From the IMG/VR virus record IMGVR_UViG_2660238499_000007, positions 1 through 10,267 of that record: DNA of 10,267 nt. One strand, 5' to 3'. The first letter of the stretch is position 1, and the number at the start of each line of letters is the position of its first letter. Positions 8,077-8,490 of the stretch are shown in pieces. The stretch comes from a virus. Its lineage: Duplodnaviria > Heunggongvirae > Uroviricota > Caudoviricetes. The position numbers were made by a program, and so were the translations under genes. The notes beneath the pieces were generated by a model, which saw only the letters and a program-made list of their open reading frames with translations, searched no databases and was not told the origin of the DNA.

Positions 8077-8184
8077 AGGGTGTGAGCACTTTTCAATAGT
8101 AGCACCGCAGCAAGATGGGTGATGAAAACAAGTATTTATAACTTAAAGGCATTAAAAAATCGCTTATAGATCAAAAGAAATCTA

Positions 8185-8220
8185 CGTCAAATATTACTAT
8201 ATTTCAATGTGTTATAATTA
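8185..8220 (+). promoter_or_regulatory. Putative extended -10 promoter within AT-rich insert, driving the 8248 ORF
   Basis: TGTTATAAT (TG-n-TATAAT, 8210-8218) in a markedly AT-rich 170-bp stretch, with GGGGAGA RBS at about 8235-8241; the -35 element is weak or unclear. Confidence 0.4.
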
Positions 8221-8247
8221 CCCGTCCATAAAATGGGGAGACACAAA

Positions 8248-8490
8248 ATGTTCAAACGCTGCATCACCAAGTGTGGAAGCACACCTGACATCCACGCTTT
8301 TATTAATGAAGATGGTAAGCTTGTTGTTGAGAGGAGTGGTCATTTTATTAGCAAACAACTTATCATTACCTCTCCAGCGGAGATGGCCGGGGAATGGATA
8401 GTTTCTGAACCAGAGGAGTGGCACACCCCTCTTCCTTATGGCCCTCAGGGACTGATTTATAACCGTTATGTTCAGAAGGAGGCGGGTTGA
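8248..8490 (+). CDS. Hypothetical 80-aa protein (moron-like accessory gene) with own promoter
   Basis: ATG 8248 is preceded by GGGGAGA (the track starts at the upstream in-frame ATG 8233, which overlaps the RBS). MFKRCITKCGSTPDIHAFINEDGKLVVERSGHFISKQ...; N-terminal CxxxC; no family recognised. Confidence 0.5.
   Translation: MFKRCITKCGSTPDIHAFINEDGKLVVERSGHFISKQLIITSPAEMAGEWIVSEPEEWHTPLPYGPQGLIYNRYVQKEAG

Follow-up and report, generated by a model that had tools for sequence, protein, structure and literature searches.

A small accessory cassette with a predicted promoter of its own beside a deletion joint in an eroded lambdoid prophage

Morons are marked by a GC content unlike that of their surroundings, by a promoter and a terminator of their own and by expression from repressed prophages; lambdoid examples are the HK97 gene 15 element and lambda bor and lom (PMC3594210). 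Here, we describe a candidate unit of comparable character in a 10,267-nucleotide stretch of a Caudoviricetes record (IMG/VR record IMGVR_UViG_2660238499_000007, positions 1 to 10,267; this whole stretch is called the window). It is a cassette composed of an AT-rich leader, a gene for a protein of 80 amino acids (aa) at 8248-8490, a dead theta/Hot homologue and two hairpins, and it follows a recT fragment that ends at 8076. An original prediction, made from the sequence of the window alone, had seen a promoter-bearing insert with the signature of a moron at this place. Our comparisons point to a different history, in which the cassette was already in place rather than inserted. Accordingly worded, the interpretation is that of a 2.5-kb deletion beside a pre-existing accessory cassette with a predicted promoter of its own, and we assign it as a whole a probability of about 60%.

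Like the morons, the cassette is a small accessory unit with a promoter-like element and, in its E. coli form only, terminator-like hairpins; some related prophages have it and others lack it, and it has been transferred as a whole between positions and between genera. Unlike them, its coding part is not distinct from the neighbouring genes in GC content, and its place is in the early 'ea/nin' regions, which are highly mosaic, instead of between two otherwise adjacent conserved genes. Whether it represents extra DNA is ambiguous, because mosaicism affects the entire region and the genes on either side differ as well. The cassette may thus work like a moron, with membership of this class demonstrated only in part. 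Of the signature originally claimed, the promoter-like element travelling with the gene is retained at the sequence level, and the distinct composition of the gene is lost.

The recT fragment and the deletion joint

The recT-like frame stops at 8076, as had been noticed before, and three features describe its surroundings:

7741-8076, plus strand: 5' fragment of recT (PF03837, phrog_148), 111 codons closed by a fortuitous TAA (8074-8076)
8074-8075: deletion joint with a 2-nt TA microhomology, delimited by the overlap of two BLAST alignments to the IMG/VR contig L111 and by a three-way alignment
8077-8122, plus strand: 3' remnant of an Ead/Ea22-like zinc-ribbon gene, comprising its last ~15 codons and TGA (8120-8122)

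The window recT is a truncated pseudogene: it has 111 aa as compared to 300 aa in full-length relatives (L111), and its match to PF03837 (26.8 bits, cut-off 24) covers only profile positions 4-76 of 198. The match to phrog_148 has an E-value of 2.6e-34, and the fragment is 98-99% identical to recT of phage EC.P3 and of L111, with the similarity ending at 8075.

Contig L111 carries both the window recT and the cassette block. BLAST aligns window positions 7554-8075 with L111 768-1289 at 98.9% identity and positions 8074-9182 with L111 3827-4935 at 97.6% identity, so that the recT part and the cassette block are 2,537 bp apart in L111. The gene order there is a 103-aa gene, RecT (300 aa), Gp157, a 104-aa gene, DUF5405, an Ead/Ea22-like gene (261 aa), the cassette, a 114-aa gene, an Xis-like gene and the integrase. 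Since L111 holds recT and the cassette separated by this interval, the alignments show that the window is to be read as an L111-like prophage minus 2,537 bp, that is as the product of a deletion and not of an insertion. Missing relative to such a prophage are recT codons 112-300, Gp157, the 104-aa gene, DUF5405 and most of the 261-aa Ead/Ea22-like gene. The TA overlap would be the mark of an illegitimate deletion, and the TAA that closes the recT frame arises from the joint itself.

The right-hand side of the joint leads to the same result. Positions 8077-8122 have a GC content of 50%, are out of frame with recT and do not belong to the leader; the 170-bp AT-rich stretch of the original prediction consequently shrinks to 8123-8247 (27% GC), the rest being the 3' end of another gene. 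In L001, L002, L111 and L141, the annotated upstream coding sequence runs through the part matching 8077-8122. The genes preceding the cassette in L001, L002 and L141 are labelled DUF550, Ead/Ea22-like, DUF551 or "DnaJ", an annotation that varies because of the C-terminal CxxC zinc ribbon. In 31 other loci, the block from 8074 onwards is joined without a break to a zinc-ribbon gene annotated as Ead/Ea22-like, DUF550 or 'DnaJ', and the stop codon of this gene corresponds to 8120-8122. All of the 31 other E. coli-type copies collected start to match the window at 8071-8074, and none of them matches the recT side. Likewise, a megablast search of 5,426 complete E. coli genomes recovered the segment rightward of 8074 as a contiguous block of 96-99% identity in other prophages. 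No record among the 5,426 complete E. coli genomes, the GTDB species representatives and the IMG/VR contigs spans the recT joint, so it is a private lesion of this prophage.

These data also bear on the claim that a foreign promoter-bearing segment was inserted into recT and replaced its 3' part. Insertion would explain why recT stops abruptly at 8076 and why the GC content drops shortly after. However, it leaves unexplained that 8077-8122 is the end of another gene, which precedes the cassette in the 31 other loci, that the joint recurs in none of the collections searched, and that in L111 the cassette comes after an intact recT and four more genes. Insertion is refuted unless L111 is a chimeric assembly, and we regard it as extremely improbable. 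Phage EC.P3 shares recT and the 114-aa gene with the window and lacks the 8074-8820 block.

The leader and its conserved core

The remnant of the zinc-ribbon gene is followed by the leader and the 80-aa gene:

8123-8247, plus strand: AT-rich intergenic leader of 125 bp (27% GC)
8181-8218, plus strand: conserved 38-nt core, a predicted sigma-70 extended -10 promoter without -35 hexamer
8181-8191, plus strand: upstream part of the core, TCTACGTCAAA, at about -44 to -34, followed by a 16-nt spacer plus TG
8210-8218, plus strand: extended -10 element TGTTATAAT, containing the sole TGNTATAAT of the window
8235-8240, plus strand: Shine-Dalgarno (SD) sequence GGGGAG, 7 nt before the ATG at 8248
8248-8490, plus strand: gene of the 80-aa protein (phrog_9613), mildly acidic, with a predicted six-stranded beta-barrel fold

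The extended -10 element, the strong ribosome binding site and the 80-aa open reading frame (ORF) are thus present as originally described. To assess the conservation of the leader, five diverged lineages were compared. They come from both early operons and from no fewer than two genera, represented by E. coli and Pectobacterium, and three of them derive from Logan assemblies. The leader alignment yields the core consensus TCTACGTC-n-AA-N15/16-TGTG-n-TAT-nn-T, followed by SD and ATG. Twenty-three of the 38 core positions are invariant, and the invariant bases include TG at -15/-14, TAT at -12 to -10 and T at -7, with no -35 hexamer. Between pairs of lineages, the core is 68-89% identical, whereas codon positions 1+2 of the gene reach 56-76% and codon position 3 reaches 32-64%; the core exceeds codon positions 1+2 in ten of ten lineage pairs. 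Synonymous sites are saturated at these distances, and the spacing of the core to SD and ATG is fixed (20-45 nt); the SD in turn lies 6-8 nt from the MF.. start in all lineages. A non-coding core that is more conserved than the encoded protein is a mildly unusual property, and it offers a precise and cheap experimental handle.

The same picture emerges at short range. Among 30 E. coli-type copies, a single site (8195) varies within 8181-8218 versus 16 in the remainder of the leader; six of these flank the core at 8165-8178 and 8219-8226. Contig L111, which is not part of this set, differs from the core at 8189 (G for A) and at 8210. The leaders of Pectobacterium and L013 contain a second copy of ATCTACGYC 21 bp upstream of the first.

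Some extended -10 promoters of sigma-70 (TGnTATAAT) lack a -35 hexamer and have an upstream activator or UP site. The cassette resembles them in its TG at -15/-14, in TAT..T at -12 to -7, in the lack of a recognisable -35 sequence and in an element near -40: the TCTACGTC block would sit at about -44 to -37, centred near -40. It differs from them in that this element matches no regulator site that we could name. From the conserved pattern, we infer that the core is an autonomous sigma-70 extended -10 promoter (TG-n-TATAAT, no -35), in which the TCTACGTC element would be either a putative UP-like element or the site of a regulator.

Several observations weigh against a promoter of its own. A single TGNTATAAT in 10 kb is at chance level (0.70 expected; at least one in 103 of 200 shuffled sequences), and a generic -35/-10 scan did not call the 8210-8218 site because it has no -35; the significance of the TGNTATAAT site would therefore come only from its conservation across lineages. 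The close relative L111 has CG in place of TG at -15/-14 (AATGCGTTATAAT, L111 3960-3968), a natural variant that is usable for testing promoter strength. Since the cassette without exception points in the direction of the early operon, it may also be expressed by read-through. In Pectobacterium and L010, no terminator-like site was found after the gene. Finally, the compositional contrast ascribed to the gene is absent: the ORF, at 46.5% GC, hardly differs from the recT fragment (47.3%) or from the 114-aa gene further downstream (47.2%), and only the 125-bp leader is low (27%).

Such observations would be expected of an ordinary delayed-early gene of the PL or PR operon, with no promoter of its own and with a leader acting as a protein-binding site, a recombination 'linker' or a translational element. 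The bases that are invariant in the five lineages are, however, exactly those of an extended -10 element (TG, T-12, A-11, T-10 and T-7). Moreover, the leader yielded no consensus RNA structure, and a gap of 125-260 bp precedes the ORF in every homologous context, whereas neighbouring early genes abut or overlap. We therefore rate the delayed-early alternative as somewhat unlikely, and of the autonomous promoter first proposed, the conserved 38-nt core is what carries the case, the TGNTATAAT match as such being of no weight.

The leader corresponds to no Rfam family. No further ATCTACGYC occurs in the ~7 kb of prophage DNA around the cassette. The composite motif stands in front of this gene family alone in IMG/VR, the other nine matches being GC-rich chance hits, and 596 Gb of GTDB species representatives gave only scattered matches in unrelated taxa. 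The motif thus does not belong to the operator set of a phage-wide regulon. A minus-strand promoter candidate in the leader (TTGACG-16-TATAAG) was discarded: its -10 lacks the final T and, judged by eye, it is not conserved in Pectobacterium or L010. Judged by their consensus sequences, the operators of LexA, CRP, FNR, IHF, DnaA, MetJ, NrdR and CII do not fit either.

Based on these comparisons, the following scenario is the most likely. An illegitimate 2.5-kb deletion joined codon 111 of recT to the final ~15 codons of the Ead/Ea22-like gene. A sigma-70 extended -10 promoter, aided by a UP-like or factor-bound element near -40, would start transcription near 8224-8226, yielding a leader of ~24 nt with a strong SD that would direct synthesis of the 80-aa barrel protein. 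The transcript of the E. coli form would pass through the overlapping theta/Hot homologue and stop at the two hairpins, and the gene would be expressible independently of PL. In the window, an intact cI faces PL and no N follows the presumed nutL (see below), so that the promoter of the cassette would be the only obvious route of expression. If active as a promoter, the leader would make the cassette a compact unit of one gene that stays expressed in prophages which are otherwise silent or dead, and that phages of E. coli and Pectobacterium, as well as the two early operons, have exchanged; as it stands, the gene represents one more uncharacterised prophage ORFan family.

A bolder extension is doubtful, and we consider it distinctly unlikely. 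According to it, the 38-nt core would be a dedicated promoter-operator for a factor recognising ATCTACGTC, which the Pectobacterium and L013 copies contain as a direct repeat at a distance of 21 bp, and the beta-barrel would represent a new class of prophage-expressed effectors (e.g. for exclusion, anti-defence or modulation of Pol III epsilon-theta) that is kept by selection in decayed prophages.

The 80-aa gene and its product

The original prediction had found nothing recognisable in the protein. It is, however, already catalogued as phrog_9613, with a full-length match of the hidden Markov model (E-value 6.8e-50; residues 4-85 of the 85-aa reading of the gene, profile positions 1-82 of 82), and the distant homologues P0011 and P0013 match this family as well. 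No function is attached to this entry, and neither Pfam nor NCBIfam offers a model of the family. Searches with the protein or its alignment against Pfam, NCBIfam, PADLOC and PDB sequences returned no relatives. No copy of the cassette was detected by tblastn or blastn in 50,697 GenBank phage records, and a literature search did not find the protein accessions.

The family is small. Only ~10 genuine cluster representatives were recovered by searches of 5.8e9 and 1.8e9 proteins, to which an exhaustive HMMER search contributed three distant small homologues; P0014-P0016 from this search were rejected as repeat-protein false positives and P0010 as a read-through artefact. The E. coli type is present in 88 of the 5,426 complete E. 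coli genomes and in about 30 IMG/VR contigs; a lysogen carrying it is E. coli IAI1 (ECIAI1_RS03810). A second E. coli-type variant (P0005; L003, L040) shares 63-69% aa identity. The remaining members are a homologue from Pectobacterium carotovorum (P0011) and those of the Logan-assembly lineages (P0012, P0013, P0017), the latter sharing 42-50%.

Comparison of the window gene with the second E. coli-type variant gave a ratio of non-synonymous to synonymous substitutions (dN/dS) of 0.13-0.16 at a dS of 0.9-1.6, with 13, 15 and 30 differences at codon positions 1, 2 and 3, respectively. Of the 30 E. coli-type copies, 29 have an intact ORF and one carries a nonsense allele; there are no indels, and nucleotide diversity of the ORF is about half that of the leader. 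The motifs MFxxC, AFxNEDGxLVVER, AGxW and YGPQGLIY are kept down to 42% identity. These patterns show the ORF to be a real gene under purifying selection. The N-terminal CxxxC pointed out before exists in the window (C5 and C9), but it is not a feature of the family because only Cys5 is invariant, the position of C9 being N or D in P0005, P0011, P0012, P0013 and P0017; a Cys pair for metal binding or redox chemistry is thus not shared by the homologues.

One could argue that the ORF is spurious or decaying and that only the non-coding leader is conserved, for instance as promoter of a small RNA or as a binding site. This would agree with the tiny family, with several cluster representatives being frameshifted or truncated (P0003, P0004, P0006-P0009) and with a first AlphaFold2 run on 4 near-identical sequences, in which the predicted local distance difference test score (pLDDT) was 40. 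Yet this option appears very improbable in view of the low dN/dS with synonymous sites near saturation, the retained protein motifs, the conserved SD and ATG and the 29 intact population copies. Moreover, AlphaFold2 with 7 diverse family members reached a pLDDT of 83 and a predicted template modelling score of 0.74 for an all-beta model with six strands.

The start codon common to all lineages is the ATG equivalent to 8248, preceded by the SD. The 94-aa reading of some gene callers (ATG 8207) was rejected, as the extension is out of frame in several other copies and, owing to a C-run deletion at 8220, in the window, and so was the 85-aa reading (ATG 8233), which is out of frame in three IMG/VR copies; both are artefacts. 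On the minus strand, a 139-aa ORF (8218-8637) runs across the complete 80-aa gene and into theta; it is probably spurious because the codon-position pattern favours the plus-strand gene.

Structure prediction, which had been recommended at the outset, thus delivered a model, a six-stranded antiparallel beta-barrel without close structural relative. It resembles SF1141 (2kz4, head-tail adaptor-like), PilZ domains (YcgR, MotI), FMN-binding split barrels and neck 'stopper' proteins in being a six-stranded barrel, with ~70 aligned residues. We take the predicted fold as that of a generic small beta-barrel and claim no homology. PilZ domains bind cyclic di-GMP through the motifs RxxxR and D/NxSxxG; the 80-aa protein does not combine both motifs with significant fold similarity. 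The isoelectric point is 5.85 for the window protein and 4.9-6.1 for the homologues. On reading the sequence, without use of a predictor, no N-terminal signal peptide or lipobox was seen. With low confidence, we suggest that the product is a cytoplasmic, mildly acidic beta-barrel with conserved surface motifs, which may bind a host or phage protein and serve the phage in an accessory, moron-type and not in a core role. Compact units expressed from silent prophages have repeatedly been found to encode superinfection-exclusion, defence or host-modulating functions. By analogy, exclusion, anti-defence or host modulation would be our guess, a prior for such cassettes.

Genomic contexts, downstream genes and prophage setting

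The cassette occupies two kinds of position. Near the xis/int end of the leftward operon, it is found in the first E. coli type, in Pectobacterium and in L013, and in the nin region of the rightward operon it is found in L003 (Rac-like) and in L010/L011. The leader accompanies the gene in both positions, whereas upstream and downstream genes are unrelated between contexts, the downstream neighbour being phrog_1636 in Pectobacterium and an HNH_2 protein in L010. In the window, the gene is followed by:

8468-8747, plus strand: homologue of DNA polymerase III theta and phage P1 Hot (PF06440 in two frames), overlapping the end of the ORF by 23 nt
8767-8787 and 8798-8817, plus strand: two tandem terminator-like hairpins with T-runs, which close the E. 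coli-type block

Like P1 Hot and HolE, the theta homologue matches PF06440, and its sequence is close to that of P1 Hot; unlike them, the window homologue is broken and most relatives contain an in-frame TGA. In the window, the domain is split into profile positions 2-35 and 35-67 in two frames by a 2-bp deletion at ~8601/8602, a lesion that L111 shares. Of 30 E. coli-type copies of theta, 29 are dead (in-frame TGA in 27, C-terminal frameshift in one, 2-bp deletion in one, namely the window) and only one is intact. The TGA replaces a conserved Arg codon (CGA), and this widespread allele shows almost no further decay. Theta was hence inactivated by two independent routes, the 2-bp deletion and the in-frame TGA.

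The arrangement raises the question of whether the ORF and theta/Hot form a two-gene unit acting on the replisome (Pol III epsilon-theta), with the 80-aa protein as partner or modulator of theta. Theta directly follows the ORF in both E. coli-type variants in spite of their divergence, with the 23-nt overlap in the window and a 61-nt gap in L040, and the two genes lie together between a single promoter-like leader and a single pair of terminators. However, theta is a pseudogene in nearly all copies in which the ORF is intact, and Pectobacterium, L010 and L013 have unrelated downstream genes, which makes a joint function improbable. Returning to the cassette as an accessory unit centred on the 80-aa gene, decay of its neighbours (recT truncated, theta dead, integrase broken) next to an ORF that is nearly always intact fits selection on the ORF, an argument that is weak on its own because the gene is short.

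Homology between E. coli-type copies stops at ~8820 in roughly half of the loci. In L004 (5930-6140), another lambdoid prophage, the C-terminal 25 codons of the ORF and theta occur in the nin region behind an unrelated N-terminus (P0009), and this fusion is preceded by the double-hairpin sequence known from the downstream side of theta in the window. The hairpin region thus appears to be a recurrent mosaic boundary. In L005 (6001-6201; E. coli GCA_012406525.1), a deletion that removes the leader and the N-terminal half of the ORF fuses the upstream Ead/Ea22-like zinc-ribbon part to codon ~45 of the ORF, giving P0007. Positions 8686-8820, from the end of theta through both hairpins, also gave a sub-threshold Rfam match to rsmX (26.8 bits versus a gathering score of 56, E-value 0.02), in all likelihood a spurious hit to the tandem hairpins.

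Gene content and profile matches identify the window as a strongly eroded P22-like/lambdoid prophage. Its further landmarks are:

384-1553: O-antigen-type acyltransferase, in the left part of the window
1589-3883, minus strand: tailspike with P22 head-binding domain
3924-4217: mnt, adjoining the protein O fragment and the tailspike gene
4225-4728, minus strand: N-terminal fragment (167 aa) of replication protein O
7369-7397, rightward: lambda-type PL, TTGACA-17-GATACT (perfect), from a promoter scan
7544-7744: 66-aa ORF (phrog_3486), N-terminally shortened, matching only positions 40-102 of the 102-position profile
9433-9906 and 9870-10121, minus strand: tyrosine integrase in two overlapping ORFs

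The left part also encodes Mnt, CII, Cro, a lambda-type CI (cI is intact) and a KilA-N protein. The O fragment lies directly beside mnt and the tailspike gene; therefore, nearly all replication, nin, lysis and morphogenesis genes are gone through one large deletion. A hairpin at 7466-7480 (GCGCTGACAAAGCGC), which follows the lambda-type PL/OL, is what we take to be a P22-type nutL boxB. No N gene is present between this hairpin and the first downstream ORF, and that ORF is the shortened phrog_3486 member, so that a second deletion probably removed N and neighbouring genes. The order after PL is the 66-aa ORF, the recT fragment, the cassette with the theta homologue, the 114-aa gene, an AlpA/Xis-like gene and the integrase. 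Altogether, the window contains 61 ORFs of at least 40 aa, and ORFs of the size of the 80-aa gene are common there. The window integrase is probably a frameshifted pseudogene; its counterpart in L001 is intact and has 392 aa.

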